A DNA stretch of 64,000 nucleotides from assembly GCA_963796325.1 (NCBI GenBank), contig CAWCLF010000001.1, positions 1,461,800 through 1,525,799 on the forward strand, written 5' to 3'. The notes under the pieces are model-generated. The model was not told where the DNA came from, searched no databases, and was given only the letters and a program-made list of their open reading frames with translations. Below are positions 9,111-54,210 of this stretch, in pieces. Positions within the stretch are counted from its first letter, which is position 1, and every line of letters begins with the position of its first letter. Both the position numbers and the translations under genes were made by a program. Source of the stretch: an uncultured Spirochaetota bacterium (lineage in GTDB: Bacteria; Spirochaetota; Brevinematia; Brevinematales; JAOACQ01).

Positions 9111-11759
9111 ATGCATATATATAAAAGAGAGAATGGGATTTATTATTACAAACGTGTTGTTGCCGGAGAATTAAAAAGGTTCAGTTTAGGAGTGAGGGAT
9201 TATAGGTTAGCCCATGAACTTCAGGAACTATACGATAAGGATAAGTTTTTATCTTTCCATGAAAAGAAAAAACACATAGTGGGTAATATCCCTTTAGATG
9301 AAAAAGACCAGGAAGCTGATTCTAAAATCAAAAAGCATAATATAAAAGATATTTTTGTTGAGTTCTTGGAGGGGAAAAATGCCTATTACCCCGTGTGTTA
9401 GGATAGTTGTCGCCTAAAATATTAGGAGACAAAAAATGAAAAGTCAATTTCATTCAGAAGAATTCAGGAGAACTATCGTTCAAAAGATGTGTATTCCCGG
9501 CGGGAAAACAGTAACAGAATTAAGTCAGGAAATAGGAGTGAGTGATCAGACCCTTTACAATTGGAGGAAAATGATCCAGAATAATGTATCCAGAGGATAC
9601 CAGGAGAGAAGTCCGAGAGGTTGGAAACTATCTGAAAAGTATCAGGCGGTGATAGATTCAGCCAATCAATCGGGAGAAGAGTTGGGACAGTGGCTAAGGA
9701 AAAACGGACTTCAGACAACGCATATCGAGCTCTGGAAACAGGAGTGTAAATCAGTGTTATCTAATAATGAAGCCAGGGATGAAATCAAGCAATTGAAAAT
9801 AAAAATAGCCGAGTTAGAAAAGGAAATTAATCGTAAGGATAAAACTATAGCCGAGGTTACTTCTCTGCTGGTGCTTAAAAAAAAACTGAACAAGCTATTC
9901 GGCAAAGAGGAAGATTAACTCCCATGGATATAAGGATAAATATCTGTGATTTGATAAATGAGGCAGTTATGACAGGGGCAAGCAGGGATAAGGCTTGTGA
10001 AGAATCAGGTTATGACATCAGGACCATTCAGCGCTGGGATAAAAATCTTGAAGGAGATAGGAGAAAAATACGGGAATATAAACCCAGGAATGCCCTGTCA
10101 GCAGAAGAAAGAGAGGAAATCATCTCCTGTTGCTGCTCTGAGAGGTTCATAGATATGACCCCGAATGAAATAGTACCATTACTGGCCGAGGAAGGGGTCT
10201 ATAAAGGATCAGAATCGACTTTTTATCGTGTCTTGAAGGAAAAAAATATGCTTCACCATAGATATGAAACGAAGCCGAAAACGGCGAGAAAAACCCCAAG
10301 AGAGTTGGAAGCGACAGGGCCCAACCAGGTATGGAGCTGGGATATTACCTATATATCCAGTCATATCAAGGGTAAGTACTTCTATCTCTATCTGTTTGAG
10401 GATGTCTGGAGCCGTAAGATAGTCGGCTGGAAAATGCACGAGGAGGAAAGCTCCGATCATGCCGCCAGGATTATGGCCGAGATCGGAGAAACAATTGATT
10501 TAAAGGGCTTGTATCTACATTCAGATAACGGTTCTCCTATGAAAGGAGCAACGATGTTATCGACCTTGCAGAGGCTACAGGTTATGCCATCGTTTTCAAG
10601 GCCGAGCGTAAGTAACGATAACCCTTACTCAGAATCATTGTTTAAGACTTTAAAGTATAATGTAAAATACCCTGGCCGTTTCGAGACAATAGAAGCGGCG
10701 GAAATATGGATGCAGAATTTCGTAGACTGGTATAACAATAAGCATCTTCATTCAGGGATTGGATATGTGACCCCTGCACAGAGACATGACGGTAAAGATA
10801 AGGCAATACTCCTGATGAGAGCGAAAACTTATGATGCGGCAAAAAGCAGGCATCCTGAAAGATGGTCAGGAGAATCTAAAAAATGGGAAAGGATAGAATC
10901 GGTATTTTTAAACCCGAGTAAGACTAACAAGGAATCGTTGATTGCGGCGTAAAATAAAAGCGACAACTCCCTTGACAAAAACCGATTAGTAAAAGCCAAA
11001 ATAATGTTTATAAGCGAATCTTTCAGCTTCTAACTGAACATAACTTTTTTTACATAGAGGATTTTACAGTCAAAAAACTTAGTGAATTTTTTTCATTTTT
11101 AATTGATACATATAAATCAAATTCTGTCATTAAATACATCAATGCTATTAAGGCTTTCTTGCACTATTCTATAAAGTTTGGATATTTCAACCTAACGGAA
11201 TATAATCGGATAAACTGGCCCAGGATAAGGACTAAAGTTAATGATTTTATTATGAGTGATGAAGATTTGCAAAAAGTATGGGATTATTTCAATGAAAAAT
11301 AACCATGATTTCTATATCTATCTCCTATGTCTTTACAATTTATGCTGTCGGCCATCGGAAGTTCTTTTTATCAGGAAGATTGATTTTGATTTGATAAATA
11401 GAACTGCAAGAATCTTTATGCCCAAAACCAAAAAATATAAAAATATTCCTATCTTAAGTGATAGATTTTTTGAAATTTTAAAAGAACATTTGGAAGTTTT
11501 AAATGATGAGGATTATGTTGTCAAATTTCGGTCTTTTGATCACTATTCAAAACTTTTTAAAAGATTAAAACAAAAATTGAATTTGAATCCAAAGATTAAT
11601 TTGTATTCGGTGAGACATAAGGCAGCCACCAAGTTATACTTGCAAACATTGGATCCAAAGTTCATTAGCATTATGCTGGGTAATGATGTTGATATGGCGA
11701 TGAGAGTTTATGTAAACCCAGCGATTACTGAATATGATAAATATCGTAATAACATTTAA
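9111..11759 (+). pseudogene. Second integrase, paralog of 5414-6475; IS-interrupted and frameshifted
   Basis: N-terminus MHIYKRENGIYYY resembles MGLIRRSNGFYYV. After removing IS 9389-10984 the reading ISKSQNNVY...IMSDEDL...CRPSE...YSVRH...MRVY needs two single-base frameshifts (near 9370-9385 and 11290-11300). Confidence 0.8.
9389..10984 (+). mobile_element. IS3-family element C, copy 1 (1596 bp)
   Basis: Ends CCCCGTGTGTTAGG...CTTGACAAAAACCG; 4-bp TSD ATTA (9385-9388, 10985-10988); orfA 9436-9918 and orfB 9924-10952 (WSWDITY, LHSDNG, SNDNPYSE). Confidence 0.95.
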
Positions 11760-11776
11760 TTATTGGAGAATAAAGA

Positions 11777-14133
11777 ATGTTAGAAAATAATTTTGAAGCT
11801 TTACTTAAATTGGCTCAAAACCTTGAATTCACTGATCTTGACAAAATTGTAATAGGAGCACAAAAAAAGATATCAAAAACTGATCCTTTTTATCGGCGGG
11901 ATAATTTTCATGACATTTCATATATCCCAGATATAGCAATCAATAATCCAAGGAAGTATTTTAAGCCCTGTTTCTATTGTTTTAAGGAGGATCTTCAAAT
12001 CATTATAAAAGAGAGAGGGGGTGCCAGTAAACATTCAGAACGCATCAGCAACAACCGCTTAATATGGGATGCATTCAGAAGATTATGTAAAAGGGATCAA
12101 AAGAAGCATAAACATACTATTGAACACACAAGGTTACAAATGATAAAAGCAAAAATCAGGGGCTACAGATACTGCTATGAAGGTGGCTTCTGGAGTCGGC
12201 GAGAATATCGGCTTAATGATAACTGCCAGCTTATTGGAACAGGTAACATCCTGTCAATAATAATCCCGATTGAAGATCAGCAAGACATAGTAGGGTTAAT
12301 GCATAGGAAGATTGATGAAGTAATTGATCTGGGTGTCTACCAGACTGACAATGAAGAAGAAAGGAAGTTAATCCATAACCGGTTCAAACTGAAGGAAATG
12401 GAGATAGATGCATATTTCTATGACCAACCTCTTTTTGAATTATTACTCCATGAAGATGAATATCACTATGAAACAACTACCTACCTCAAGGTAAATAAAT
12501 CATCTGAATTATACGCATACAATGTTACTGCTAAGCAAGAAGGACGAGACTTCAATCTACCTGATGACCTTTATAAAATAGAACTGCGGTTAAAGTTTCT
12601 GTACTTCAAATACCTTTATAAAGCTCACCCTGAAGTAAAATTGTTGAACCCAGTTGAACTATTTAAATGGCTGAAAAGTAGAGAGTCAAAGGATTTTATT
12701 TTCAATCAATCTCCTGCGCCCTTTGTCAAGAACAATTATCCAAAAGGTTTAAGGTGTATCCAGGGTTACGCAGCATTTCTTACTGCAAATGCTCCATAGT
12801 AAACTTCATCAGGGGTAGAGTATTCCAGGGATTGATGAAACCTTTCTTCGTTAAAAAATTTAAAGTAATTGTCTATTCCCTCCTTTAATTCTTTCATATC
12901 AGAGTAGTCTCTCAGATAAATTTCCTCGTACTTCAATGATCTCCAGAGCCTTTCAACATATATGTTATCCAGGGCCCTTCCTTTGCCGTCCATGCTGATT
13001 TGTATATTTCTGCTTTTTAATACATCGATAAACTTATCAGAAGTAAACTGGCTCCCCTGATCGGTGTTGAATATAGCTGGAACTCCATACTTTCTCAAGG
13101 TTTCTTCCAGAACCTCGACGCAGAAATTAGCGTCCATTGTGTTGGATAATCTCCAGGATAAGACTTTACGGCTGTATAGATCGATAATCGCTGCCAAATA
13201 GACATAAGTTCCTTCCAACTTGACATAGGTTATATCCGTGGCCCAGGCATGGTTTGGAGCAAGAAAGTTTTTACCTTTCAACAAATATGGATATTTCGGG
13301 TGCGCTTTATTCGGAATGCTGGTCCTCATCCTGGGATATATCGCCCTAAGTCCTATCTTTTTCATCAATCGCCTGGTGATCTTCCTTGTCAGTCCATGGT
13401 CTTTTAACGACAAACAAATTTTCCTATACCCATAAAAAGGGTGTTTATGGTATTCCTTCCTTATCAGGCTTACCTTTTCAAACTCATCATCTTCAATGGC
13501 AGAGCTGTTTGCAGGCTGGTAATAATACCAGGACCGTCCGATTTCTAAGCCCTTACAGAGCTTTGAAATTGAAATTCCTTGATTATTGCTCTCTAAAATT
13601 TCGGATCGTGTCCAAAGATAGCCTTGTACTTTTTTTTTAACACACTGTTTTCAATCTGCAATTCACCGAGTGCATTAATATACTGGTTTTCTTTTTCCTG
13701 ATGCCTGCGTGCTTCATCACTTTTTTTATTGGGACGTTCAAATAATTCCGCAGCGCCTTCCAATAACTGCTTTTTCCATAGTCCTATCTGATTCGGGTGT
13801 ACATCAAATTCAGAAGCTAGTTGAACAATCGTTTTTTGCTCTCGTATGGCTTCAAGAGCAACTCTCGCTTTAAACTCATTCGTAAATGATTTCCTCATGG
13901 TTATTTCTCCTTTCTTGTTTTTCGGAGTATACCACCTTAAACTATCAGTTCAGATTGTGCAATTTTCAGGGCTCATTATACAATCCTTAAGGGATATTAG
14001 AAGGATAGTTGAAGAATCGAATGTTCAAACTGGTATCCGCTGGAAGATTCTGGATGATCTGAATAGGGAGTGGAAAGAAATGAAGACCTCATCTGGAACT
14101 TCGATGCCCGAAGGCAGCAAAGTAGTTCACTGA
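11777..14133 (+). pseudogene. Putative replication initiator-like protein (about 360 aa when reconstructed), split by an IS3 element
   Basis: Removing IS 12710-13980 and one CAA copy restores ...DFIFNQ-SLRDIRRIV...KVVH*. LYAYNVTAK...LYKIELRLK resembles the YxK...RxExR pattern of Rep_trans/gpII-type initiators (inference). Confidence 0.5.
12710..13980 (-). mobile_element. IS3-family element B (1271 bp)
   Basis: Imperfect IRs sharing TG(A/C)GCCCT...ACAA...GTTTAAGGTG; 3-bp TSD CAA (12707-12709, 13981-13983). orfA is 13593-13898; orfB ends at 12766 and extends upstream past the listed ORF via an A9G -1 slippery site. Confidence 0.88.
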
Positions 14134-14159
14134 AACGCGAAGCATTGAAAGTTGTTATC

Positions 14160-14283
14160 GTGCGGGCCCGCAGGACCGCACTTAACCCCCTTAAAGGGGT
14201 TATCGTTAGTTCCCCAGTTTTTGAGGTCTCAGTTCCCTCAAAAACTGTTGTTGCAGTGGGGTCTTAGTTCCCCCATCTGCAAC
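14160..14283. repeat. Four consecutive hairpins after the Rep-like gene (putative origin)
   Basis: GTGCGG/CCGCAC (14160-14181), TAACCCC/GGGGTTA (14183-14202), CAGTTTTTGAGG/CCTCAAAAACTG (14215-14247), GTTGCAG.GGGG/CCCC..CTGCAAC (14250-14283); AGTTCCC occurs three times. Confidence 0.75.
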
Positions 14284-14698
14284 GCCATGAAAATTATTAG
14301 TTTTGTTATAGGAGCTATTCAAAGGTTTCAGCAATTATTACAAGCACGATATTCCGGACATTCCTGAATGGTCTTATTGCATTGTAAAATATCTTTACAA
14401 AGGGCATAGCCTTAAGGTACGATACTAAATGATTAACCGGATAAGACCTTGTACTCATCATGCTAAATATGATTATTGCAGAGAAGATAGTACCGATCTG
14501 TAAAGGATGACTGGTAGAAGTTTTGTTTCAAGCCTGCTTATTCCTAACAGGAAGTGTACTCAACAGGTACATAGAGAATCTATCTGATTTACTATTAAGA
14601 GTGTGGGCAGAATATAATTTGGGCATTAAACGGAACAAGAGATTAAATCGTGTAAATAGGGTTTAATAAATGATTTCTAATCGGATTAAAGAGGATCA

Positions 14699-16516
14699 TT
14701 ACAAAATTTTCTGTAAAACTATTTCCTTCAGCTTATCCTGAGTGATGAAAGGTGATTGTGCCCTTTCAATACCTTTTCCTCTATTACAAAGCAGGTCTCC
14801 CCTTCCTAACAGCGATTCTCCTCCCTGCTCGTCCAATATTATCTGGGAATTAGCTGAATTTATTACCCTCAGGCAAACTTTCAGTGGTAAATTAGCCTTA
14901 ATCAACCCTTGGACAATATTTTTATCGGGCCTTTGGGTAGCAAGAACCAGATGAATACCGGCAGCCCTGCCCTTGCCGGCAATCTTTGCAACAAGATTTT
15001 CGAATTCCTTTTTTTCTTCCTTACTCGACAGCACTAAATCTGCAAATTCATCAAAAACTATGATATGGAAAGGAATATCTTTCCTGCCTTTATAAAACCT
15101 TTCCGATAGATTAGAAAAACCTTCTTTTCCCAGGATTAAATACCTTTCTTCCATATCCACAACAACGGAAACAAGACAAGGTATAACATTATGAATATCA
15201 GTTACTACTGGTGTTTTTAGAAAAGGATTATCATTGAAAATGCTAAAAGTCAGTATTTTCGGATCGACCAGGGATAATTGAAGCGTTTGAGGACTATTTT
15301 TAAGAATTAACGAAGCGATCATTGATTTTAAAAATTCACTTTTACCGCTTCCCGATGCACCGGCTATGAGCGCATGACACATATTTGGGTCTGCAAAATC
15401 GGCAATAATAATTGAGGCATCCACCCCAACACCTATTGGGAAAGAAACAGGACCGTGATTTTCTTTATATCTAGCATCCTGCATCACCTTTTCCCATGAT
15501 ACAACGGCGGGCTTTTCCTTCGGTAAATCGATTGTAACGCAGCCTTGGGCCGGACCAATAAGAGGGGGAAATTGAAGAGACATTAATACCTGCAAATCGT
15601 CAGCACGACTTGCAAGTGATGATACTTTCACACCAGGTCCTGGATGGATTTTATACCTTGTAAGCTGGGGCGCTTCCAGTTTATCAATTACTTCTACTAC
15701 CAGATTGAATGAAGAAAAACATCGGATGATATCTTGTGAGAAGTCTTTATCAACAGAATAATATTGTTTTGAATCGGATCGCTTATATTCAGCTATTTTC
15801 CGTAAGGTTGGTTCCACCATATTGGCAAAAAGAGAATTTAATTCATCCCTGCTAACAACAACTTCATGCAGTTCCGGCAGATAATACTCCAAAACGCCCC
15901 GAAAATTTTTGTCAGGATTTAACTTGGAAAAACATTTCCAGTATATAGCAAGCTGGAGGATGTCATACTTAAGATTATTACCTTTTGTTAATTTATAATC
16001 TACGATTTCGAGACTTCCATCAGGGGATCTCCTGACAGTATCCGATTTGCCGGAAACAAATACGGAATTTCCTTCAAAGGAGAATTGAATATCTTTGAAC
16101 TCCCATTGCTTTATCGTAATCGGAAAGATATCCTTCCATGATTGAAATCCAGGCATCCTCATTTTTAACTCTATTAGTCTTTTGCAAAATGCCTCTATAG
16201 ATTTAACAAATTTGTGAGCAGTATTATTTCCTTTTTCCTTTATGATTTCCATTATTCTCTTTTTTGCAAACTTTGAATACATATGATCCCATATCGATAT
16301 AAAATCTGAAATTTTATCGGGAGAGATATCTCCTCGATTTAACCACTCCAAAAATTCTGCAGTTATCAGATGAAAGTCAGTTCCATAGGATTTAATCCCG
16401 CCATCTGACGTGAAGTTTCTTGTGTCAGGGTTTTTACCTTCAAGCCAATCCTGGAGCCAATCATTATCAATACAGGCTTTTTCAAGACTTGTTACATTAA
16501 TGGCCTTTATTTCCAT
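14699..16516 (-). CDS. PD-(D/E)XK (RecB/AddB-like) nuclease fused to an FtsK/SpoIIIE ATPase, without TM or gamma domain
   Basis: Nuclease motifs GTDFH, SGKSD, IVDYK, LQLAIY; FtsK motifs GASGSGKS, IVFDEFADL, GRAAGIHLVLATQRP. Start set at ATG 16516 (MEIKA), overlapping the upstream stop. Confidence 0.85.
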   Translation of the reverse strand: MEIKAINVTSLEKACIDNDWLQDWLEGKNPDTRNFTSDGGIKSYGTDFHLITAEFLEWLNRGDISPDKISDFISIWDHMYSKFAKKRIMEIIKEKGNNTAHKFVKSIEAFCKRLIELKMRMPGFQSWKDIFPITIKQWEFKDIQFSFEGNSVFVSGKSDTVRRSPDGSLEIVDYKLTKGNNLKYDILQLAIYWKCFSKLNPDKNFRGVLEYYLPELHEVVVSRDELNSLFANMVEPTLRKIAEYKRSDSKQYYSVDKDFSQDIIRCFSSFNLVVEVIDKLEAPQLTRYKIHPGPGVKVSSLASRADDLQVLMSLQFPPLIGPAQGCVTIDLPKEKPAVVSWEKVMQDARYKENHGPVSFPIGVGVDASIIIADFADPNMCHALIAGASGSGKSEFLKSMIASLILKNSPQTLQLSLVDPKILTFSIFNDNPFLKTPVVTDIHNVIPCLVSVVVDMEERYLILGKEGFSNLSERFYKGRKDIPFHIIVFDEFADLVLSSKEEKKEFENLVAKIAGKGRAAGIHLVLATQRPDKNIVQGLIKANLPLKVCLRVINSANSQIILDEQGGESLLGRGDLLCNRGKGIERAQSPFITQDKLKEIVLQKIL

Positions 16517-18531: not shown

Positions 18532-18534
18532 ATT

Positions 18535-24650: not shown

Positions 24651-27600
24651 GGGTTTACTGAAAAATGCAATTTCAACTTGAAACGCAGGCCAGGGGGCTT
24701 AATTTTCCAAAAAACAGGCGGTAAAAAATCAGGCGCAAAAGAAGCCGAAGCTTCTTTTCCAAATTTAATAGAAAGAAATTCACCGCTATTACCGATTCAC
24801 TTGTAATGGGAAGTTTTGTCATTATCAGGTTTAACCCATATTTCCTTTTCCCTGTCCCAAACTCCCCTTCCACAGCGTTTCGTATTGAAATATCCTCCCT
24901 TTCTTGCGCCTTCACTTTTTCTCTTTCTTTCGGTTTTTGTCAAGGGAGTTGTCGCTTTTATTTTACGCAGCAATCAACGATTCCTTGTTAGTCTTACTCG
25001 GATTTAAAAATACAGATTCTACACGTTCCCATTTTTTACATTCTCCTGACCATCTTTCAGGGTGCTTACTTTTTGCAGCCTCATAAGTGTTTTCTCTTGT
25101 CTGTAGGATAGCTTTATCTTTACCGTCATGCCTCTGTGCAGGCGTTACATATCCAATACCTGAATGAAGATGCTTATTGTTATACCAATCTACAAAATTT
25201 TGCATCCATATTTCTGCCTCTTCCATTGTCTCAAAATGGCCAGGGTATTTCACATTATATTTCAATGTCTTAAACAATGATTCTGAGTAAGGATTATCGT
25301 TACTTACGCTCGGCCTTGAAAATGAAGGCATAACCTGTAGCCTCTGCAAGGTCGATAACATCGTTGCTCCTTTCATAGGAGAACCATTGTCAGAATGTAA
25401 ATACAAGCCTTTCAAATCAATGGTTTCTCCGATTTCTGCCATCATCCTTGCGGCATGTTCAGAGCTTTCCTCCTCCTGCATTTTCCAGCCGACTATCTTA
25501 CGGCTCCAGACATCCTCAAACAGATAGAGATAGAAATACTGGCCCTTGATAAGACTGGATATATAAGTAATATCCCAGCTCCATACCTGATTAGGCCCTG
25601 TCGCTTCCAGTTCTCTTGGCGTTTTCCTTGCCATTTTGGGCTTTGTTTCATATCTATGATGAAGCATATTATTATCTTTCAATACACGATAAAAAGTAGA
25701 TTCTGATCCTTTATAGACCCCTTCCTCGGCCAATAACGGCACTATTTCATTCGGCGTCATATCTCTAAATCTCTCGCTGCAGCAGCAGGAGATGATCTCC
25801 TCCCTTTCTTCGGCCGACAGGGCATTAGAAGGCATTACATTTCTCAATTTTCTTCTGTCTCCCTCAAGATTTTTATCCCAGCGCTGTATGGTCCTGATGT
25901 CATAACCTGATTCTTCACAAGCCTTATCCCTGCTTGCACCTGCTGTTACAGCCTCATTAATCAAGGCGCAGATATCTATCCGTATATCCATGGGAGTTAA
26001 TCTTCCTCTTTGCCGAATAGCTTGTTCAGTTTTTTTTTAAGCACCAGCAGAGAAGTAACCTCGGCTATAGTTTTATCCTTACGGTTAATTTCCTTTTCTA
26101 ATTCTATGATTTTCGCTTTCAAACCCTTGTTTTCTTCTCTATATGAGTTATTAGATAACACTGATTTACACTCCTGTTTCCAGAGTTCGATATGCGTTGT
26201 CTGAAGTCCGTTTTTCCTTAGCCACTGGCCCAACTCTTCTCCCGATTGGCTTGCAGTGTCTAATACCGCCTGATATTTATCAGATAGTTTCCAGCCTCTC
26301 GGGCTTCTCTCCTGGTATCCTCTAGATACATTATTCTGGATCATTTTCCTCCAATTGTAAAGGGTCTGATCACTCACTCCTATTTCCTTGCTCAATTCAA
26401 TCACGGTCTTTCCGCCAGGAATACACATCTTTTGAACCGCAGCTTTCCTGAATTCTTCTGAATGAATTTGACTATTCATTTTTTATCCCCTAATATTTTA
26501 GGCGACAACTATCCTAACACACGGGGCTTTAGGATCAAACTTTGGCCTTCCCAGCGGCGGCCCGCTCAACCTTATTCCTTTTTTCTTACAATATTCCTGG
26601 TTGGCCCTCGTCCGATAAATCTTGTCTACAATTACCGCTTTTGGATAGAATCCAAAACGCTCCCTATATTTTTCAACCTGTTCTTTAAATATTGTTCCTT
26701 CATTGAAATTTTCCCAACTGATCTTATCCGTAAATGCATATCCGTTTGCCAGGCTGATGGAAATTTTTGCCCCGAATTCCACGTTCGCTCCCGCCTTCCC
26801 TCTTACAATCGGCCTGATATGCGGCTGGGATAGGCTGACTATCCTTTCCGGGATACTATGTTTTCCTGTTTCAAACATCTCTTTTTGTTGTTCAAAGAGT
26901 TTCTTGATTATATGTAATTGTGCATATCGCATTATCGAAATTCCAGCCAGGGTCATTTTCTCCGCATATTTTAAGTCTCTTTTCACATAATTGAGCTGCT
27001 TTCTGATCGCCTGCCTGAGAGTCTTTTCGCTGATCCTTTTGTTTTTCGCGGCTGTAAGATAATCCTTTCGCGCTAACCTTGGATATGTCCTTGGCTTTTC
27101 CGGCCCGAATTCCCCTTTCAAGTACCCTTCATTAATCATTGCCTCAAGTTTCATCCTTGCATCATTTAACAAGTTCAAATCTGTCGGATACTTGATGTCC
27201 GCCGGTGCGCATGTGGCGTCCATCAATAACTTTCCCTTGTTCTCCGGCTCCCGGTCGTTATCATCTTTTTTTTTCTTTTTTCCTTTTTTGTCAGGCTTTT
27301 CCTTCTTTTTTTCAGTAAAAAGGACTTTGTTAACCTCTTCAAGCATCTCAGGCGTTATCCGTTTACGAAAATACACCATCATGGTTGAATCGAAAGCCTT
27401 CTTCCCTTGATATTCATTCAGACCTACAAAATATTGGAAATACGGGTTCTCAATGATCTGCGACACAGTTTCTTCATCGGTAAAACCAAACCGCTGCTGG
27501 ATGATTAATGCGCCAAGAGCCATTCTGACTTTTTTAGCGCCACGGCCTATAGCTTTAAAGAAGCTGGCGTATTTTTCTTCAAGCATGTCCCAGGGAATTA

Positions 27601-34232: not shown

Positions 34233-36468
34233 CTATGGTGTTACAAAGATTGAGAATGCCCATCCGTTTAATGTCAATTTTGTTTCATTAGTCCCTGCCC
34301 AGTAGCATGCATTCCCGTAGTTATCATATCCGGCAGTAAATACTGTGTTATTATTTACAGAGATTGAATTTGCGATTTCCCCTGTTGTCAATTTTGTTTC
34401 ATTGGTCCCTGTCCAATAGCAAGCATTTGTGCCAGTGTCTAGTCCGGCCGTATAGATTGTGTCATTTGTCACAAAAATTGAGTATGCCACGCCATTTGAG
34501 GTCAATTTTGTTTCATTGGTCCCTGCCCAGTAACATGCGTTTGTATTGGCGTCTTGTCCGGCGGTATAAACTTTCCCATTATACACATAGATTGCGGTTG
34601 CCCCTCCACCTTTGTTTCCTGACAACGCTGTCTCGTTAGTCCCTGTCCAGTAACAAGGAATATGACCATTATCATACCCAGAAGAGTAGATTATATTGTT
34701 TAGAGAAAGTGATGAAGAACTAGATGAAGATGATGGCTTAGATGAAGATGATGACGAACTAGTGCTAGATGGAGGGGATGAATTCGAACCTGGTGAAGAG
34801 GAACAAGCCCCGTGTGTTAGGATAGTTGTCGCCTAAAATATTAGGAGACAAAAAATGAAAAGTCAATTTCATTCAGAAGAATTCAGGAGAACTATCGTTC
34901 AAAAGATGTGTATTCCCGGCGGGAAAACAGTAACAGAATTAAGTCAGGAAATAGGAGTGAGTGATCAGACCCTTTACAATTGGAGGAAAATGATCCAGAA
35001 TAATGTATCCAGAGGATACCAGGAGAGAAGTCCGAGAGGTTGGAAACTATCTGAAAAGTATCAGGCGGTGATAGATTCAGCCAATCAATCGGGAGAAGAG
35101 TTGGGACAGTGGCTAAGGAAAAACGGACTTCAGACAACGCATATCGAGCTCTGGAAACAGGAGTGTAAATCAGTGTTATCTAATAATGAAGCCAGGGATG
35201 AAATCAAGCAATTGAAAATAAAAATAGCCGAGTTAGAAAAGGAAATTAATCGTAAGGATAAAACTATAGCCGAGGTTACTTCTCTGCTGGTGCTTAAAAA
35301 AAAACTGAACAAGCTATTCGGCAAAGAGGAAGATTAACTCCCATGGATATAAGGATAAATATCTGTGATTTGATAAATGAGGCAGTTATGACAGGGGCAA
35401 GCAGGGATAAGGCTTGTGAAGAATCAGGTTATGACATCAGGACCATTCAGCGCTGGGATAAAAATCTTGAAGGAGATAGGAGAAAAATACGGGAATATAA
35501 ACCCAGGAATGCCCTGTCAGCAGAAGAAAGAGAGGAAATCATCTCCTGTTGCTGCTCTGAGAGGTTCATAGATATGACCCCGAATGAAATAGTACCATTA
35601 CTGGCCGAGGAAGGGGTCTATAAAGGATCAGAATCGACTTTTTATCGTGTCTTGAAGGAAAAAAATATGCTTCACCATAGATATGAAACGAAGCCGAAAA
35701 CGGCGAGAAAAACCCCAAGAGAGTTGGAAGCGACAGGGCCCAACCAGGTATGGAGCTGGGATATTACCTATATATCCAGTCATATCAAGGGTAAGTACTT
35801 CTATCTCTATCTGTTTGAGGATGTCTGGAGCCGTAAGATAGTCGGCTGGAAAATGCACGAGGAGGAAAGCTCCGATCATGCCGCCAGGATTATGGCCGAG
35901 ATCGGAGAAACAATTGATTTAAAGGGCTTGTATCTACATTCAGATAACGGTTCTCCTATGAAAGGAGCAACGATGTTATCGACCTTGCAGAGGCTACAGG
36001 TTATGCCATCGTTTTCAAGGCCGAGCGTAAGTAACGATAACCCTTACTCAGAATCATTGTTTAAGACTTTAAAGTATAATGTAAAATACCCTGGCCGTTT
36101 CGAGACAATAGAAGCGGCGGAAATATGGATGCAGAATTTCGTAGACTGGTATAACAATAAGCATCTTCATTCAGGGATTGGATATGTGACCCCTGCACAG
36201 AGACATGACGGTAAAGATAAGGCAATACTCCTGATGAGAGCGAAAACTTATGATGCGGCAAAAAGCAGGCATCCTGAAAGATGGTCAGGAGAATCTAAAA
36301 AATGGGAAAGGATAGAATCGGTATTTTTAAACCCGAGTAAGACTAACAAGGAATCGTTGATTGCGGCGTAAAATAAAAGCGACAACTCCCTTGACAAAAA
36401 CCGCAAGCTGATATAAAATAAATGCTCAAAATAACAAACATGATTAAAATAATAAAATTCTTTTTCAT
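34233..36468 (-). pseudogene. Ser-linker lipoprotein with 38-aa beta-propeller-like repeats, split at the lipobox by IS3 copy 3
   Basis: ATG 36468 gives MKKNFIILIMFVILSIYFISA-C; the IS sits inside the Cys codon. The frame continues SSSPGS...; repeats recur with a 114-nt period (34273, 34387, 34501). Confidence 0.85.
34808..36403 (+). mobile_element. IS3-family element C, copy 3 (1596 bp)
   Basis: TSD CAAG (34804-34807, 36404-36407); ORFs 34855-35337 and 35343-36371 are identical in translation to copy 1. Confidence 0.95.
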
Positions 36469-42937: not shown

Positions 42938-42940
42938 TCT

Positions 42941-45171: not shown

Positions 45172-45421
45172 AACTTCGTACAACACAGCGATTACGCTCT
45201 GTTCCTTGGGTTCGCCTTTTGTTGGGTAGACCGGAGGAGAAAAACATAAGGCTCACTAAAATCTGTTTAATTTTCAATACATTCAACTTGACTTCCTCAT
45301 ATAAAATTATATAATTGATCCAGTTCGAATCTCATTCGGTACGAATTAGGTACATTTTAAAAAAAGCCGAACCTGCTGAAGGTTTTGTAACTACAAGAAA
45401 TAGCTGAAATTGGAGAGGGAA

Positions 45422-45440
45422 TCGAATCCCTCCTCCTCCG
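45422..45440 (+). other. Isolated tRNA-Ser-like 3' end (possible att core)
   Basis: TCGAATCCCTCCTCCTCCG corresponds to T-loop, T-stem 3' strand, 7-nt acceptor strand and G discriminator; no 5' half is present. Confidence 0.45.
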
Positions 45441-45749
45441 AATAATTATAATGAGCCTGATTGGCTCACCTTCCCCGCTCAAAATCACATCCTGTTCTAT
45501 TTCGCGTTCGCTCCGGCGTCCGGCCTTCGCTTTGAATGTGAGCCAATCAGCTCTATGAATATTCGTCATCGGAGGGGAATGATCTCTTTCTTTGGCAATC
45601 GCGCCAAAGAAAGAATCAAAGAAAACGCTACCCTTAGGGCAAGCCATCATAATCGGGGGTCGGACAACCGTCCGCTTACCTGTATTTCGTCAAGTTAAAA
45701 TACCCAAAAAAAGCGCGTGAAATTACCCATGGGGTGATGGGTAAAATTA

Positions 45750-46508: not shown

Positions 46509-47971
46509 CTATCGCCTCCGGATCCGAGAAGTTCTCGGTCATAAGTCAGCAGGTCAGGTCCCTTTTCGGGAATAGCATTCAAACCGTCTAAGGCTATCCT
46601 TGCGCATATTGCCTTTAAATCAAATAGGTTAACATTCCCTCGGGATATCGCTTCTTTCATTGACAACAGGGCTGTGTCAAATCCATATTCCTTTGTTCCT
46701 CCATTGAGCGCTCTTAAGGCTTCTTTTAACTCATCTTTCTGAAGTTTATCCATTTTTTCACGGATGTCTTCGGGCATTACTTGTCTCAATCCGCTGTTAG
46801 CCCACGCATTTGTATTCTTGATCAGTTTTTCTATAGTCGTGGAATAATCGGTCTGGTCTGTCCTCTTTTCTCCAAAGGCCCTTGCATGAACACAGGCCCT
46901 TTTACCTTCCGAATCATATACAAAAACCTGATGCGCGCCGATTCCAATTACAAGATCCCGATACGCCCATTCAGGCCTGCTCGAATAGTAATGTTTCCCA
47001 TCAATACAGAATTTTCCATATCCGTCGGCTTTAAACTTCTCAAAACGCTCCACTACAAAGGCTTTATTAGGCAAATACAACATCCTGTCCTTGTCTTCCT
47101 CAAAGAGGCTGGCTATAGAGGCCCCTTTTTTGTAATGTTCCCTCTGCCAGTCCCCCTCAGATTGAAAAAGCAATTGGTTATTGTATATTTCAATATCATC
47201 AAAGGAGGGTACGGGTACAAAGTAATTCCGCCTGATATAACCAACCTTGTTTTCAACATTCCCTTTTTCGTTTCCTGAATATGGATTACAAAATGTAACC
47301 AGAAATCCGTAATGACATTTGAACCTCATAAACAATTCGGAAAAACGAACCTGGTCGCCGATCTTTCTGCCCACTCCGCTTGCGTTATCAAAGACGATCC
47401 GCAGCGGTACTCTTCCAATCCTCTCAAATATGTCTTTTAAGCCTTGTGCTACACATTCCGCTGTTTCTCCCCCGAATAACTGGTAATATGCGCCATTGCT
47501 ATATGGGAAAGAAAGGCATAAATATTTAAAAGTTCGTACTATCCCTTGTTCCAGGAAATCAGCCTCGCCAAAATCCGCCTGGGCTTCTCCTGGATACCAG
47601 ACCAGCTCTAAATATCCTGCATCCTTCCGTATTGCAGCTTTTCTCTTTTTTACATACCTCTGAACCAGTGTGTAAGAACCGTCATATCCTGGATATTCTG
47701 CTGAAAGCCTGTTATGTATACGCTGGGCGGTATGCCTTTGTTTATATCGCATTTTTCGGTCTTCTTCCAGCCAGGATTCGATTACTTCTTTCCATCGATC
47801 TAATTTGGAAGGTATTTCTTTTTTCATTGTTTTCTCGTCTGAATAATTTTCAAAACCCATATATTTGGCCACTGTCTTACGGTTAACGCTCACTTTCTCG
47901 GAAATATCAACTGGTCCGTACCCCAGGTCCTGTAGTTCTTTGATCGTTTCAATTTGCCGCATACTCAACAT
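46505..47971 (-). CDS. istA: IS21 transposase IstA
   Basis: RBS GAGGAGG before ATG 47971; AQADFG, VFDNAS, KGNVENKVGY. Confidence 0.92.
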   Translation of the reverse strand: MLSMRQIETIKELQDLGYGPVDISEKVSVNRKTVAKYMGFENYSDEKTMKKEIPSKLDRWKEVIESWLEEDRKMRYKQRHTAQRIHNRLSAEYPGYDGSYTLVQRYVKKRKAAIRKDAGYLELVWYPGEAQADFGEADFLEQGIVRTFKYLCLSFPYSNGAYYQLFGGETAECVAQGLKDIFERIGRVPLRIVFDNASGVGRKIGDQVRFSELFMRFKCHYGFLVTFCNPYSGNEKGNVENKVGYIRRNYFVPVPSFDDIEIYNNQLLFQSEGDWQREHYKKGASIASLFEEDKDRMLYLPNKAFVVERFEKFKADGYGKFCIDGKHYYSSRPEWAYRDLVIGIGAHQVFVYDSEGKRACVHARAFGEKRTDQTDYSTTIEKLIKNTNAWANSGLRQVMPEDIREKMDKLQKDELKEALRALNGGTKEYGFDTALLSMKEAISRGNVNLFDLKAICARIALDGLNAIPEKGPDLLTYDRELLGSGGDR

Positions 47972-48555
47972 TTCCTCCTCCCTGTTTTTCTTCAAAAACA
48001 GGATAACATTTCGCCTGAATTTACCCACGCTTTTTATGGGTATTTTTCACGCTTTTTCTGAGTATGTTCCTTTGCTCTTTTGGGGTACTTTTATTATACT
48101 AAAAACACCGCTTACCGCTGTTTTTCGATGGCAACCCCTTTGGCAGGGATAAACTCTACGCCTGCTGCGTAAGTCGGGGTAATATTGAAATTTCCATTTG
48201 GCTGGTTTGTTTATCCCAGCTTGTCCGGGGGCTCATTTTGGTGAAAAACGACTATTTTGAAAATTCCAGACAATCCAACCAAAAAAATGTTTTTGATGAA
48301 GTTTGCCAGCGATATGCTAGTAAATTATAATGAATTAAGGGATCTTCTAAAAACCGCCCGATTCGGCCGGTTAAGCCGGCATAAAGGCGGTAAGGTAAAG
48401 CCCATAGGGTTTATACCCGTAGGGTGTTTATACCCGAAGGGTACGAAATCATTGACTTCCTGACTTTGTATATTGATATTAATAATAGTTTTTGGAACTG
48501 CCCTTAAGTCATTTACTGGCACTGGCTAAGTAGCTCTCACCATCAAATAAAAAGC

Positions 48556-48614
48556 TTGCAAATAAATAGGATATATACTATATTATATTAAATATAAAAT
48601 AGGATATATACTAT
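48556..48614 (+). promoter_or_regulatory. Promoter with two 18-bp operator copies
   Basis: TTGCAA-17-TATATT; AAATAGGATATATACTAT at 48564-48581 (in the spacer) and 48597-48614 (over the start codon). Confidence 0.7.
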
Positions 48615-49092
48615 GAAATTAAACAAGGAAAGAATCAATCTTCAGCGGCATCAGCTCGATAATCGCTTGAAGAGAATAATCAATATCAAAGGTGAAGATA
48701 TACCAGCACAGGGATGGGTCAAGGCAATAAGGGAATCTCTAGGTATTCCTGCTACTTTATTAGCTAAAAAATTAGGTATTTCGCAGCCAACATTATCAGA
48801 ATTAGAAAAATATGAGGCTAAAGGATCAATAACGATAAATTCTTTGAAAAAAATGGCGGATGCTCTAAATTGTGATTTGAAATATTTTATTATTCCTAGA
48901 GAACCTTATAAATCATTTGAAGACATAATTGATCGACAGATTGATAAAGCCGTAAAAAAAGAACTGAATGATTTAAATCAAACTATGCTCCTTGAAAATC
49001 AGGCATTAAGCCAAAAAGAAATGAATTATCAAATGGATATTGTAAGAAGAAAAATGAAGGACAAAATAACATCCAAAATTTGGGAGATTTAA
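48613..49092 (+). CDS. Mobile mystery protein A (XRE-type HTH)
   Basis: GWVKAIRESLGI...ISQPTLSELEKYEAKGSITINSLKKMADALNC. Confidence 0.88.
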   Translation: MKLNKERINLQRHQLDNRLKRIINIKGEDIPAQGWVKAIRESLGIPATLLAKKLGISQPTLSELEKYEAKGSITINSLKKMADALNCDLKYFIIPREPYKSFEDIIDRQIDKAVKKELNDLNQTMLLENQALSQKEMNYQMDIVRRKMKDKITSKIWEI

Positions 49093-49093
49093 A

Positions 49094-49687
49094 TTGAAAT
49101 TCATTTACCCGGATGGAGCAACACCTTTAAATCCCGATGAATTGCAAGGACTTATTCCTTCACATATCACAACTCAGGCGGAATTGAATGAATTTGAGTT
49201 AAAATCAATATCTGAAGCAAGGAGGTGGTCATTTAGTAATAAAAGGAAAGACATTATCTCTGTTAATTTCATTAAAAAACTTCATAAAAGAATGTTTAGT
49301 CTTGTCTGGAAGTGGGCCGGAAAATTCAGAACAACTAATAAAAATTTAGGCATTGAATTTTTCAAAATATCCGTCGAATTGCGCAAGCTTTGCGATGATG
49401 CGTTATATTGGGAAAGTAATAAAATATATCCTATCGATGAGTTGGCGATTATATTTCATCACAGGTTGGTCTCAATTCACCCTTTCCCTAATGGAAATGG
49501 AAGGCATGCCAGATTAATGGCAGATTTAATATTGTACAACAATACTGGGAAAATATTTTCTTGGGGAAGTAATTTCATGATGGTAGAATCATCTGATATT
49601 AGGAAAAGATATATAAAAGCGTTGAAAGCCGCTGATAATAATGATTATGATCAATTGTTTAAATTTGCTAATAATATCGATAAATGA
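49094..49687 (+). CDS. Mobile mystery protein B (Fic domain)
   Basis: DGATPL...; Fic motif HPFPNGNGRHAR. Confidence 0.9.
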   Translation: MKFIYPDGATPLNPDELQGLIPSHITTQAELNEFELKSISEARRWSFSNKRKDIISVNFIKKLHKRMFSLVWKWAGKFRTTNKNLGIEFFKISVELRKLCDDALYWESNKIYPIDELAIIFHHRLVSIHPFPNGNGRHARLMADLILYNNTGKIFSWGSNFMMVESSDIRKRYIKALKAADNNDYDQLFKFANNIDK

Positions 49688-49701
49688 AAAAGAAATTGAG
49701 T

Positions 49702-50343
49702 TTATGGTTCGTTAAACTGGCCTATCTCGATCCCTCCTGCGATCCAGGGATTGTCTGCCGCTCCATAGGGATTACTGACTCGGTCTTCTTCTATCAGGTA
49801 AATCCTCAGATCCGATACTGTGCCCGGTCTTGGAACTAGGGGCAGTAAGACCATGACTTCGCCGCTGTGGAGTACGGAGAGGAAAGCAAGCTGCTGAAGT
49901 TCGTAAAAGTTAAGCTTCCGACCGGCATCCGCATCAGGGTATTCTGCCCACATCCTGAACTGCCTCTCGACGTCGGCTTCCCATGCGTCCGCCTCGTCAT
50001 CGCCCATCCCTAAGAATTCCCGATCTATGCGGGACTGGAGCCTTAAACCGCTCCCGATGACATTAGTAAGGGCCGTTTTTATGGCTCCGCCCGCAATCGG
50101 GTTATTTTTATATAAGTCCCTGGTCCTGACCCGCAGGGTCTCGATGTCCGGTAATACTTCGTCGTCCGGATTGGTCGAGGATTTCATCGACCAGCCGCGC
50201 ATCAACTGCCGCATCTTCATCGCGCCGGTATAAGTGTTCCCGTAAACCGACATAATAGCACGCACCTGCTGTCTCTTTAATCCGCTTACCGGGCTGAAAA
50301 AGCCGATCAGCCGGTCTATTATATTAGGGGTCGATCCGATCAT
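49702..50343 (-). pseudogene. Lambda-family phage portal protein, truncated at about 210 aa
   Basis: LRVRTRDLYKNNPIAGGAI...GSGLRLQS...LIEEDRVSNP; much shorter than the usual ~500 aa. Confidence 0.8.
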
Positions 50344-50582
50344 CAGATGTCCCTCGGCAATACGAATCTCGCAATGGGGGCGGATGAGCCTACGCTCAGT
50401 CGTTCGACCTCCTTCCGCCAGTAATTGATGTTATTGCGGATTTCCGCTGCATCCGTGCGGGTGAGGACACGTTTTACATTGCCCTGGTCGATTGTATAAT
50501 TCTGTCCCAGGATAAGCGCGTCATCGGCAGACATCCATACTGCCAGTTTTGCCTGAGCCTGTTCCAATGTTATTGCAGACAT
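50343..50582 (-). CDS. Phage head-tail joining protein (gpW-like)
   Basis: LEQAQAKLAVW...GQNYTI...LTRTDAAEIRNNINYW; ATGA overlap with the portal gene. Confidence 0.7.
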   Translation of the reverse strand: MSAITLEQAQAKLAVWMSADDALILGQNYTIDQGNVKRVLTRTDAAEIRNNINYWRKEVERLSVGSSAPIARFVLPRDI

Positions 50583-50799
50583 ACAGAGGTCTCCATCCAA
50601 TTCTTTTTGATATCCTATTATATGAGGCTATACAGGGGGGGCTGAAATTTCCGGATAGCATTTAAAATTTTTATGTGATTCATAATTGTAAGTAGAATAA
50701 TTAAATAAGATGATTAATTGGATTGAATAAAAATATATTTATTATTCATCTGTTGTTTTCAGTGACACAGGTGGAGGACAGGGGATATTTTGTATTGAT

Positions 50800-50937
50800 T
50801 ATTTGAGGGACAAACAAATTATTACTGCAAAAGTCATCAGGGTAGATAGTGATATTGTCGGAGCGAAGTTTGACAAATTATCGGATGAACAACTGGCTTA
50901 TATCTTGAACTTAAAAACATCCCAAAACTTATTATGA
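50800..50937 (+). pseudogene. 3' remnant of a PilZ gene
   Basis: ITAKVIRVDSDIVGAKFDKLSDEQLAYILNLKTSQNLL* matches the end of 51366-51671; no start codon. Confidence 0.7.
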
Positions 50938-51075
50938 AAGTTTATCCTGGAATGAGCGTTTTTGGGAGACAAAAAACATGCGAAATTTTGATGGCGTGTA
51001 TATAATACGTCTAATGAGCAGGTAATTTTTCTCTGATCAGGGCAATGAAGTAAAATAAAAATAAGGGGGAGAGTT

Positions 51076-51321
51076 ATGCCCAATAAAAAAAAAGAGGTAG
51101 CGACAAAAAAACCCGCAAAAAAGAGGAGTACAAGCAAGAAATCGGTTACGAAGAAATCCGCTGCCAAGTCGGAAGTCAAAGATTTTTTGGACGATATAAA
51201 AAAACGGGCACATGAAATATATCTGGAAAGGCAGAAAAATGGGATTGGCGGTGATGAGATGTCCGACTGGCTGCAGGCTGAAGAAGAGATTAAGAATAAA
51301 TACAAAAGAAAAAAAGGGTAG
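51076..51321 (+). CDS. DUF2934-like protein with basic N-terminal tail
   Basis: IKKRAHEIYLER...GDEMSDWLQAEEEI. Confidence 0.75.
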   Translation: MPNKKKEVATKKPAKKRSTSKKSVTKKSAAKSEVKDFLDDIKKRAHEIYLERQKNGIGGDEMSDWLQAEEEIKNKYKRKKG

Positions 51322-51365
51322 TTTGCTGTCCTTATTGTACTTTATTGTACTTTGTGCAGGAAAAA

Positions 51366-51671
51366 ATGGAATATAAGTTTGAAGAAAAGCGAGTAGCTGA
51401 AAGGAAACCCCTTATATTGGATGCTGAATATGAATTACAAGGGGTATTATGTCCCTGCCAGATTGTTGATGTATCAACTCAAGGCATAGGAATGAGAGTA
51501 AAAGGGATTCTTATGGTTGGGGATAAAATAAATATAATATTGGATAAACATACCATTGTTGCAAAAGTCGTCAGAGTGGATGGAAATATTGTTGGAGTGA
51601 CTTTTGAAAAATTATCGGACAAAGACCTTGATTATATTCTGAATTTAAAAACATTCCAGAACTTATTATGA
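51366..51671 (+). CDS. Single-domain PilZ protein
   Basis: RxxxR (RVAER) and DxSxxG (DVSTQG). Confidence 0.85.
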   Translation: MEYKFEEKRVAERKPLILDAEYELQGVLCPCQIVDVSTQGIGMRVKGILMVGDKINIILDKHTIVAKVVRVDGNIVGVTFEKLSDKDLDYILNLKTFQNLL

Positions 51672-51726
51672 AAGTCCTATTGACTAATAATTGGTATAGG
51701 GGGTAAGATATTGATAGGAAAAAGCT

Positions 51727-52560
51727 ATGAATGTTTTAATCTATACGCAGTCAAACTATGCCAGAAATACATTTGTCAATGCTTTGTTTTCAGCAGGAAT
51801 AACTTTATATCAAACAGAACAAGCAGAGAATCTCATTAATGATATTCAACGATATCGACCTGAAATAGTAATTTTGGATGTTATAAAGGAAGATTTTGCT
51901 GCCGTCTTTGAACTCGTAAAGAAAATAAAAAATCATACTTCTGAAGAAGTGAAAAAGACAGGTATAATTCTTCTTATAGGCTCTATTGATAAGCAAACCA
52001 TTTCAGCTGCAATTCAGTATGGTGTTATTGGATTTATCAGAAGTAATGCCGCAGCAGATTTTGTTTGCAAATATATTATGGATATATATCAAAAGTTATG
52101 CGGTGTTCCGCCTAAACGAAAATATATACGGATTATAATTGACCCTGATGACAGTATTGGTATTAAATTTCGGTCTCCTGTTAATTCGCAGCTCATAATC
52201 GGTAAAATTGAAGATATCAGTTTCGGAGGTATTGCAGTCGAATTATTTGGGTCATTTCCTTCAGATTTAATAACTATTGGTTCCGAGATAAATAATATGC
52301 AGTTCATTTTAGATGGGAAGGATATATTTATTGATGGTGAGGTGGCTGCCTACCAGAAAAATTTTTGTGCCTTTAGGTTTAAGAATATGACTCCAGAAAT
52401 AAAAGGGATCATTTCTCAGTATATTTTTAAAAGAATATACAGTATAGAAGAAGAGAGTAAAGTAGTACAGGAAGGAACTGGAGCTGGCGAGAATCTTGTA
52501 AATCAAGATAATTCCCAGGATCAAAATAAAGATTTGCCGAAATCAAAAGAACAGCAATAA
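51727..52560 (+). CDS. Atypical receiver domain + PilZ
   Basis: VILDV is retained but the acidic pocket and the Lys are degenerate; PilZ motifs RKYIR and DISFGG. Confidence 0.75.
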   Translation: MNVLIYTQSNYARNTFVNALFSAGITLYQTEQAENLINDIQRYRPEIVILDVIKEDFAAVFELVKKIKNHTSEEVKKTGIILLIGSIDKQTISAAIQYGVIGFIRSNAAADFVCKYIMDIYQKLCGVPPKRKYIRIIIDPDDSIGIKFRSPVNSQLIIGKIEDISFGGIAVELFGSFPSDLITIGSEINNMQFILDGKDIFIDGEVAAYQKNFCAFRFKNMTPEIKGIISQYIFKRIYSIEEESKVVQEGTGAGENLVNQDNSQDQNKDLPKSKEQQ

Positions 52561-52614
52561 TTAATTTTTATACTATTTATCATATGAGCCGCCGATCGAT
52601 TTTCATGAAGGAAC

Positions 52615-54210
52615 CCCCGTGTGTTAGGATAGTTGTCGCCTAAAATATTAGGAGACAAAAAATGAAAAGTCAATTTCATTCAGAAGAATTCAGGAGAACT
52701 ATCGTTCAAAAGATGTGTATTCCCGGCGGGAAAACAGTAACAGAATTAAGTCAGGAAATAGGAGTGAGTGATCAGACCCTTTACAATTGGAGGAAAATGA
52801 TCCAGAATAATGTATCCAGAGGATACCAGGAGAGAAGTCCGAGAGGTTGGAAACTATCTGAAAAGTATCAGGCGGTGATAGATTCAGCCAATCAATCGGG
52901 AGAAGAGTTGGGACAGTGGCTAAGGAAAAACGGACTTCAGACAACGCATATCGAGCTCTGGAAACAGGAGTGTAAATCAGTGTTATCTAATAATGAAGCC
53001 AGGGATGAAATCAAGCAATTGAAAATAAAAATAGCCGAGTTAGAAAAGGAAATTAATCGTAAGGATAAAACTATAGCCGAGGTTACTTCTCTGCTGGTGC
53101 TTAAAAAAAAACTGAACAAGCTATTCGGCAAAGAGGAAGATTAACTCCCATGGATATAAGGATAAATATCTGTGATTTGATAAATGAGGCAGTTATGACA
53201 GGGGCAAGCAGGGATAAGGCTTGTGAAGAATCAGGTTATGACATCAGGACCATTCAGCGCTGGGATAAAAATCTTGAAGGAGATAGGAGAAAAATACGGG
53301 AATATAAACCCAGGAATGCCCTGTCAGCAGAAGAAAGAGAGGAAATCATCTCCTGTTGCTGCTCTGAGAGGTTCATAGATATGACCCCGAATGAAATAGT
53401 ACCATTACTGGCCGAGGAAGGGGTCTATAAAGGATCAGAATCGACTTTTTATCGTGTCTTGAAGGAAAAAAATATGCTTCACCATAGATATGAAACGAAG
53501 CCGAAAACGGCAAGAAAAACCCCAAGAGAGTTGGAAGCGACAGGGCCCAACCAGGTATGGAGCTGGGATATTACCTATATATCCAGTCATATCAAGGGTA
53601 AGTACTTCTATCTCTATCTGTTTGAGGATGTCTGGAGCCGTAAGATAGTCGGCTGGAAAATGCACGAGGAGGAAAGCTCCGATCATGCCGCCAGGATTAT
53701 GGCCGAGATCGGAGAAACAATTGATTTAAAGGGCTTGTATCTACATTCAGATAACGGTTCTCCTATGAAAGGAGCAACGATGTTATCGACCTTGCAGAGG
53801 CTACAGGTTATGCCATCGTTTTCAAGGCCGAGCGTAAGTAACGATAACCCTTACTCAGAATCATTGTTTAAGACTTTAAAGTATAATGTAAAATACCCTG
53901 GCCGTTTCGAGACAATAGAAGCGGCGGAAATATGGATGCAGAATTTCGTAGACTGGTATAACAATAAGCATCTTCATTCAGGGATTGGATATGTGACCCC
54001 TGCACAGAGACATGACGGTAAAGATAAGGCAATACTCCTGATGAGAGCGAAAACTTATGATGCGGCAAAAAGCAGGCATCCTGAAAGATGGTCAGGAGAA
54101 TCTAAAAAATGGGAAAGGATAGAATCGGTATTTTTAAACCCGAGTAAGACTAACAAGGAATCGTTGATTGCGGCGTAAAATAAAAGCGACAACTCCCTTG
54201 ACAAAAACCG
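52615..54210 (+). mobile_element. IS3-family element C, copy 4 (1596 bp)
   Basis: TSD GAAC (52611-52614, 54211-54214); ORFs 52662-53144 and 53150-54178; one visible synonymous SNP versus copies 1 and 3, at about 53511. Confidence 0.95.

Follow-up and report, generated by a model that had tools for sequence, protein, structure and literature searches.

An IS3-family insertion sequence with 7-bp tips outside its TG...CA inverted repeats in an uncultured Spirochaetota bacterium, and a plausible promoter at the junction of its ends

Copies of the element in the window and in the source genome

We analyzed a 64,000-nucleotide stretch of DNA (here, the window) from an uncultured Spirochaetota bacterium, in which one insertion sequence (IS) is present in four copies of 1596 bp each. 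Three of them lie on the + strand and the copy at 24931 on the - strand, an orientation left unmentioned in an earlier note that had pointed out the element. No difference separates copies 1 and 3, a single base sets copy 4 apart, and copy 2 is ca. 89% identical to the others. Each copy has its own 4-bp target duplication (ATTA, CTTT, CAAG, and GAAC; that of the inverted copy is AAAG in the element's own orientation), and these duplications directly abut the outermost bases, CCCCGTG... and ...AAAACCG, also in the diverged copy. The copies, and the parts of copy 1, are as follows.

9389..10984, + strand: IS copy 1, type A, 1596 bp; duplication ATTA at 9385-9388 and 10985-10988
9389..9395, + strand: outer 7 bp at the left, CCCCGTG (consensus of the clade, CCCCCKG), without a repeat at the opposite end
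9396..9413, + strand: left inner inverted-repeat core TGTTAGGATAGTTGTCGC; holds the TG at 9396-9397 and a -10-like TAGGAT at 9399-9404
9436..9918, + strand: orfA, 160 aa; HTH_Tnp_1 and a coiled-coil region
9877..9885, + strand: A9 slippery run (CTT AAA AAA AAA CTG), found in the sequence; the orfB frame (-1) is open from 9879
9924..10952, + strand: orfB, 342 aa; HTH_32 and rve DDE domain
10960..10977, + strand: right inner inverted-repeat core GCGACAACTCCCTTGACA; holds an outward-facing -35-like TTGACA at 10972-10977
10978..10984, + strand: outer 7 bp at the right, AAAACCG (consensus of the clade, NNNACCG), with G as the last 3' base where CA would have A
24931..26526, - strand: IS copy 2, type B, ca. 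89% identical to type A, with intact reading frames; duplication CTTT at 24927-24930 and 26527-26530
34808..36403, + strand: IS copy 3, type A, identical to copy 1; duplication CAAG
52615..54210, + strand: IS copy 4, type A, 1 mismatch; duplication GAAC

The genome assembly (3.58 Mb in 4 contigs, 44% G+C) contains 14 full copies, and the termini are common to all of them. Seven copies (type A) are mutually 99.9 to 100% identical, one of these being split by another insertion; six (type B) are 99.9 to 100% identical among themselves and 89% identical to type A; and a single copy represents type C. The 160-aa orfA and the A9 run are kept in every uninterrupted copy, and orfB encodes 342 aa in types A and B and 332 aa in type C. 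An exact 4-bp duplication flanks 9 of the 14 copies and a 5-bp duplication one more. For any one copy, a 4-bp match has a probability of 1/256 by chance, and the pattern of flanking duplications at these ends is real, well beyond chance. The coexistence of two near-identical, intact subfamilies argues for recent activity of the element, in line with the current activity that had been suggested from the window copies; in this genome, both appear to have been recently active, with several genes broken and at least one composite apparently built.

With respect to family assignment, OrfB scored 186.1 bits against the NCBIfam IS3 model NF033516 (curated cutoff, 160), and the Pfam domains found were rve, rve_3, HTH_32, and HTH_Tnp_1. 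Candidate catalytic residues of OrfB, assigned by motif position, are D140, D201, and E237, plus K241 and K244. The reading frames follow the layout of the family, that is, orfA followed by orfB in the -1 frame, and an A-rich slippery site is present at which a frameshift is predicted; runs of A6 to A9 occur at the equivalent place in 53 of 56 relatives. Duplications of 4 bp, and in one case 5 bp, fall within the 3 to 5 bp expected of the family. The termini do not follow the TG...CA expected of it, being CC...CG, with TG...CA located 7 bp further in. Judged by these features, the element is an IS3-family IS with orfA and orfB, a DDE transposase, and 4-bp target duplications. Up to this point, what the earlier note had described (the family, the four copies of equal length, and their distinct duplications) was confirmed.

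Ends of the element and their conservation

The inner inverted repeat (TGTTAGGATAGTTGTCGC and TGTCAAGGGAGTTGTCGC) matches at 14 of 18 positions and begins 7 bp from each end, as had been noted before, and within the outer 7 bp, the left and right ends agree at position 1 alone. The ends of IS3-family elements are normally TG...CA, with a short flank-derived spacer in the circle that sets the promoter spacing (PMC9330008; PMC3219604; PMC6211511), and CA-3' is the usual essential substrate (PMC3219604). Two observations, together with the duplications, place the ends of this element 7 bp outside such a position, where the earlier note had put them. When copy 2 and one duplication were removed, a 400-bp empty site was obtained, positions 2 to 398 of which aligned gap-free to homologues in two related genomes (82% identity); since removal of the copy plus 4 bp leaves a gap-free site, the 7-bp tips are part of the element. 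Along the same lines, a 1590-bp Logan unitig of a 77%-identical relative starts at CCCCC and stops at ...TTCCG, so that it is exactly the element. In DDE transposition, the base adjoining the duplication is the transferred 3' end, and therefore, the strands end in ...CCG-3' (right) and ...GGG-3' (left, bottom strand), not in CA-3'. The transferred ends thus lie 7 bp outside the TG...CA core. That the outer 7 bp might instead be host target sequence at a site-specific insertion, with a true element of 1582 bp ending in TG...CA exactly where a canonical IS3 end is expected, has next to no probability: 10 of the 14 copies have variable 4-bp (one 5-bp) duplications outside the 7 bp, removal of 1596 + 4 bp restores the site without gaps, the unitig stops exactly at the outer bases, and the 7 bp accompany the element across phyla. 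The duplications, the empty site, and the unitig ends led us to reject a target-derived origin of the tips.

Relatives were confirmed by tblastn at 588 places, and their end pairs were collected from copy-versus-copy boundaries in nine genomes and by motif-anchored extraction. The resulting 52 distinct end pairs, spread over several phyla, have a single architecture, with which the boundaries in all nine genomes agree, so that the 7-bp extensions are conserved among the homologues. The left end of the relatives reads CCCCC(T/G)G-TGTCAGGATAG(N)TGTCGCC and the right end GGCGACAAC(N4)TTGACA(N3)ACCG (the right consensus can also be written ...TTGACANNNACCG), and the window element fits the lineage consensus CCCCCKG-TGTCAGGATAGNTGTCGCC ... 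GACAAC....TTGAMANNNNCCG. An exact 4-bp duplication was present directly outside the ends in 29 of the 61 elements with flanks. Members were found in Spirochaetota, many Proteobacteria, Planctomycetota, Desulfobacterota, and Firmicutes. The Escherichia coli member (1630 bp, with a GTAA duplication) occurs in 583 of 5426 complete genomes, a plasmid of Enterococcus faecium carries another, and overall, the lineage is common, with copies in E. coli, Salmonella, E. faecium plasmids, and Pseudomonas syringae pv. actinidiae. Clade members share at least 45% identity over the full-length OrfB, compared with only 21 to 32%, in the catalytic core only, for IS911, IS3, ISEc52, IS1133, and ISKpn18 as well as the IS2, IS3, and IS150 of strain K-12. 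By this measure, the clade is discrete, and its end architecture is conserved throughout. One practical consequence is that annotation of IS3 ends based on TG...CA falls 7 bp short per side in this lineage, misplacing both duplications and empty sites.

Junctions between the ends and the predicted promoter

If the two ends of the window element are abutted, the TTGACA of the right end (10972-10977) is separated by 17 bp from the TAGGAT of the left end (9399-9404), which is preceded by TGn. The earlier note had described this arrangement as a perfect junction promoter, which holds for the -35 hexamer (6/6) and for the optimal spacing but overstates the -10 hexamer, with a match of only 4/6. Across the 52 end pairs, the distances from the hexamers to the tips are invariant, 7 and 10 bp, and add up to 17 bp when the ends abut. 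Right ends have TTGACA or TTGAAA in 48 of 52 cases, and left ends have CTGACA at the equivalent site; position 13 is G in 98% of the left ends and A in 96% of the right ends. TG occupies left positions 8 and 9 in 49 of 52, and the left -10 hexamer, CAGGAT in relatives and TAGGAT in the window element, has A2 in 100% and T6 in 90%. With a 4-bp spacer, the gap becomes 21 bp, and a promoter scan found no usable -10. As a control, an equal scan of the K-12 IS2 returned the best -35/-10 pair at all spacers from 0 to 2 bp, with a 17-bp gap at 1 bp; for IS2, the 17-bp gap given by the 1-bp spacer has been reported as required (PMC3219604). From the hexamers and their spacing, a promoter at a zero-spacer junction is plausible and partly supported, although unproven.

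We also scanned public assemblies for a right end next to a left end, allowing 0 to 12 bp between them. This way, eight head-to-tail junctions were found, all in relatives, with spacers of 0, 0, 0, 0, 1, 4, 4, and 4 bp; six were in metagenome contigs (L082 to L087) and two in genome contigs (L081 and L088), and viral contigs gave none. Contig L083, assembled by SPAdes, has a 55-bp terminal overlap and is equivalent to a 1669-bp circle with orfA and orfB and a spacer of 0. L085 extends from the 3' end of orfB through the junction into orfA (spacer 0), and in L082, a 92%-identical relative of L085, the spacer is also 0 and the second copy stops after 63 bp. L087 has a full copy followed, with spacer 0, by ca. 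35 bp of a second left end, and L084 has a spacer of 1 bp. The 4-bp spacers are TCAC in L086, a tandem arrangement; TAAC in L081; and TAAT in L088, a nested arrangement in Massilia. A separate feature of L087 (positions 100 to 130) is the similarity of the host DNA immediately left of its full copy, TTGCACACCTAC, to the right tip of the element, TTGACACCTACCG, which hints at insertion beside end-like sequences.

Taking these data together, we assign a probability of ca. 60% to the following reading: this is an active IS3 element of a lineage resembling IS1240 and ISPsy31 (see below), with two-part ends, in which a circle or dimer junction with 0 to 1 bp between the ends makes a transient promoter. 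The inner inverted-repeat core of ca. 19 bp, starting with TGTCA, would be the presumed binding site of the transposase. The outer 7 bp are unlike between the two ends (left, CCCCCKG; right, NNNACCG), and those on the left are proposed to be the outer "catalytic" domain of that end. The element would move by the copy-out/paste-in route of its family, with a predicted -1 frameshift at the A9 run joining orfA and orfB. The circle or tandem-dimer junction would usually join the ends with 0 to 1 bp between them, an idea that 5 of the 8 junctions fit. In the joined state, the right TTGACA would come to lie 17 bp upstream of the left TGn-(C/T)AGGAT, producing a transient promoter for orfA/orfAB, while in the integrated state, a weak extended -10 in the left end alone would remain.

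Several points weigh against this reading. Promoter activity, the cleavage position, and the binding domains are all elements that we infer. The -10 hexamer is weak, 4/6 in the window element and 3/6 (CAGGAT) in most relatives, and a consensus promoter scanner made no call on two natural junctions because CAGGAT and CAGCGT are below its 4/6 threshold. One sublineage, 77% identical, has CCTGAA in place of TTGACA; Logan and ENA contigs of these relatives provided boundaries and no junctions. As for the 0- to 1-bp junction that had been predicted, 5 of 8 cases agree with it, but the other 3 (L081, L086, and L088) carry 4 bases, an outcome that the earlier note itself had named as contrary to its proposal, and these widen the gap to 21 bp, at which the hexamers give no promoter. 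L082 and L087, each with a truncated second copy, represent genomic contexts and not clean circles. Finally, no circle or dimer junction was found in the source genome with its 14 copies, and none of the eight junctions comes from the window element.

The most serious alternative, unlikely in our view, is an ordinary IS3 element with diverged tips that forms circles in the manner of canonical members, the spacer of 4 bp matching the length of the duplication, and in which TTGACA and TAGGAT do not cooperate; the hexamers would then owe their conservation to a place in the binding site of the transposase or to use as two independent promoters, one outward and one inward. This would account for the three junctions with 4 bp (TAAC, TCAC, and TAAT) and for the location of TGTCA within the symmetric repeat core of both ends, and the published spacer of IS911 is 3 to 4 bp (PMC9330008). 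However, the 4-bp spacers come from genomic arrangements, nested or tandem, with flanks that do not pair up as simple duplications, and the 0- to 1-bp junctions, a majority, include the sole clearly circular contig. Moreover, the single-base asymmetry from CTGACA to TTGACA is nearly fixed, in right ends only, and the 7 + 10 = 17 spacing is invariant.

We consider it quite improbable that the zero-spacer junctions, rather than being transposition intermediates, reflect assembly artifacts or stable tandem insertions that arise when the element targets the tip of a copy already in place. In favor of such events, a truncated second left end follows the full or partial copy in L087 and L082, and the flank of the first copy in L087 resembles a right end. 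Besides, no tandem junction was seen in E. coli: when compared with 5426 E. coli genomes and the plasmid collection, the artificial 0-bp junction of the E. coli member gave no contiguous match, only half-matches that end at the element boundaries. Absence of stable dimers from finished genomes is, however, also what an unstable, reactive junction predicts. The self-closure of L083 with a 55-bp overlap requires junction-spanning k-mers in the reads, and four samples, independent of one another and covering no fewer than three diverged lineages, had spacer 0. Should the flush junction and its promoter prove real, the lineage would offer a natural variant with which to ask how DDE enzymes of the IS3/retroviral type read the terminal dinucleotide, and it would show how spacer length is set during circle formation.

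Relation to named lineages and individual insertions

The Prokaryotic Genome Annotation Pipeline names the Pseudomonas relatives "IS3-like element ISPsy31 family" and "IS1240 family" transposase. ISPsy31 is the ISfinder name of an element of P. syringae pv. actinidiae (Butler et al. 2013, PMC3583860), and IS1240, also named in ISfinder, is from P. syringae pv. tomato. The host of ISPsy31 carries it in 54 to 88 copies. Measured to the extended ends, the ISPsy31-family element has 1667 bp and the IS1240-family element 1668 bp. The published size of ISPsy31 is 1667 bp (PMC6053426), that is, the length including the 7-bp tips, which indicates that the extended ends are already registered. These elements are 46% identical to the window OrfB over its full length (ca. 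330 aa) and share its end architecture (CCCCCGG-TGTCAGGATAGTTGTCGCC ... CTTGAAAAACGCCG), the orfA/orfB organization, an A-run slippery site, and a size of 1.6 to 1.7 kb. The window element differs in its Spirochaetota host, in its hexamers (TTGACA versus TTGAAA and TAGGAT versus CAGGAT), and in its slippery run (A9 versus A6G); given those hexamers, the window copy has the better predicted junction promoter. By OrfB identity and end architecture, it is a new member of an existing named lineage (IS1240/ISPsy31), not a new kind of element.

This bears on the earlier note in two further ways. An existing ISfinder definition of these ends for a known subgroup had been named there as contrary to its proposal, and the published size of ISPsy31 indicates that the ends are registered. 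The distinct subgroup that it had suggested survives in part, as a discrete clade with a conserved architecture, but one whose lineage already includes ISfinder-named members. The ISPsy31 literature that we examined describes the element only as IS3/IS911-like with a -1 frameshift, and unusual ends, junctions, a subgroup feature, or a mechanism is not described there; a literature string search with the end sequences returned unrelated primers only. We advance as a tentative proposal, at somewhat under even odds, that IS1240/ISPsy31-like elements, including the common copies in E. coli, Salmonella, and Enterococcus plasmids, form an unrecognized IS3 subgroup that also includes the window element, with a transposase acting on ends that finish in G-3' (CCG / GGG) instead of CA-3', zero-base flush joining, and a 7 + 10-bp geometry selected for a 17-bp promoter.

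Two IS3 lineages, IS1447 and ISPpy1, have been proposed as separate subgroups, partly for their non-TG ends (PMC6211511), and neither accommodates the window element. The IS1447 subgroup has TA termini, a 3-bp duplication, and orfB in the +1 frame (PMC6211511), versus CC termini, 4 bp, and the -1 frame here. The N terminus of ISPpy1 showed 27% identity to the window OrfA over 96 aa only (E = 4e-6; the first 400 nt of ISPpy1 were compared), and the coding sequence of ISPpy1 is ca. 1.17 kb, versus ca. 1.5 kb in the window element.

Among the well-studied elements, IS2 resembles what is seen or proposed for the window element in its bipartite ends (an inner binding and an outer catalytic domain), its asymmetric left and right tips, its extended -10 promoter in the left end with an outward -35 in the right end, and a junction promoter that needs exactly 17 bp, with a spacer shorter than the target duplication (PMC3219604). 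By analogy with IS2, the asymmetry of the 7-bp tips may mark one end as donor and the other as target. In contrast, IS2 ends in TA/TG...CA with a 1-bp spacer and a 5-bp duplication, and its OrfB is 21% identical. IS911, IS3, and IS150 have the copy-out/paste-in model, the OrfAB made by -1 frameshifting, and the concept of a junction promoter with the -35 in the right inverted repeat and the -10 in the left one (PMC9330008), as proposed for the window element; they differ in their TG...CA termini and 3- to 4-bp flank-derived spacer, and their OrfB is 22 to 26% identical, in the catalytic core only.

Some individual members of the clade deserve mention. The E. faecium plasmid NZ_CP018073.1 (L090) carries at 904-2680 a 1777-bp member, without a matching duplication, that ends ca. 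230 bp upstream of a predicted aac(6')-Ie/aph(2'')-Ia resistance gene, with its outward TTGACA facing the gene. ISEf1 was considered as a name for this Enterococcus member and dropped, being treated as an IS256-family element with an 8-bp duplication. A 517-bp stretch of the E. coli plasmid CP091392.1 (22845-23361; H191) contains both 70-bp ends of the E. coli member and may be a miniature deletion derivative.

In the source genome, the split type A copy (C1:819586-822814) is interrupted near element position 1271. The insert, 1628 bp long, has inverted ends (CCTGAATCCG...CGGATTCAGG) and a 5-bp duplication (GTATA), which indicate a different insertion sequence. At C3:551795-555397, copies of type B and type A, 411 bp apart, share one orientation; neither has its own duplication, CAAT is found on both outer sides, and the pair looks like a composite moved as a unit. 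Another type B and type A pair (C1:796645-804032) is inverted, ca. 4.2 kb apart and without matching duplications; CATG is one flank of each copy, and the arrangement may reflect rearrangement between copies. Within the window, an open reading frame of 96 aa at 9111-9401 (MHIYKRENGIYYYKR...) runs straight into the left end of copy 1, which appears to interrupt a gene. Copy 2 sits inside another repeated element; its reconstructed empty site (24730-26730) has 7 matches in one related genome and 3 in a second one, with identities of 71 to 82%, and copy 2 probably landed in a gene of another mobile element.

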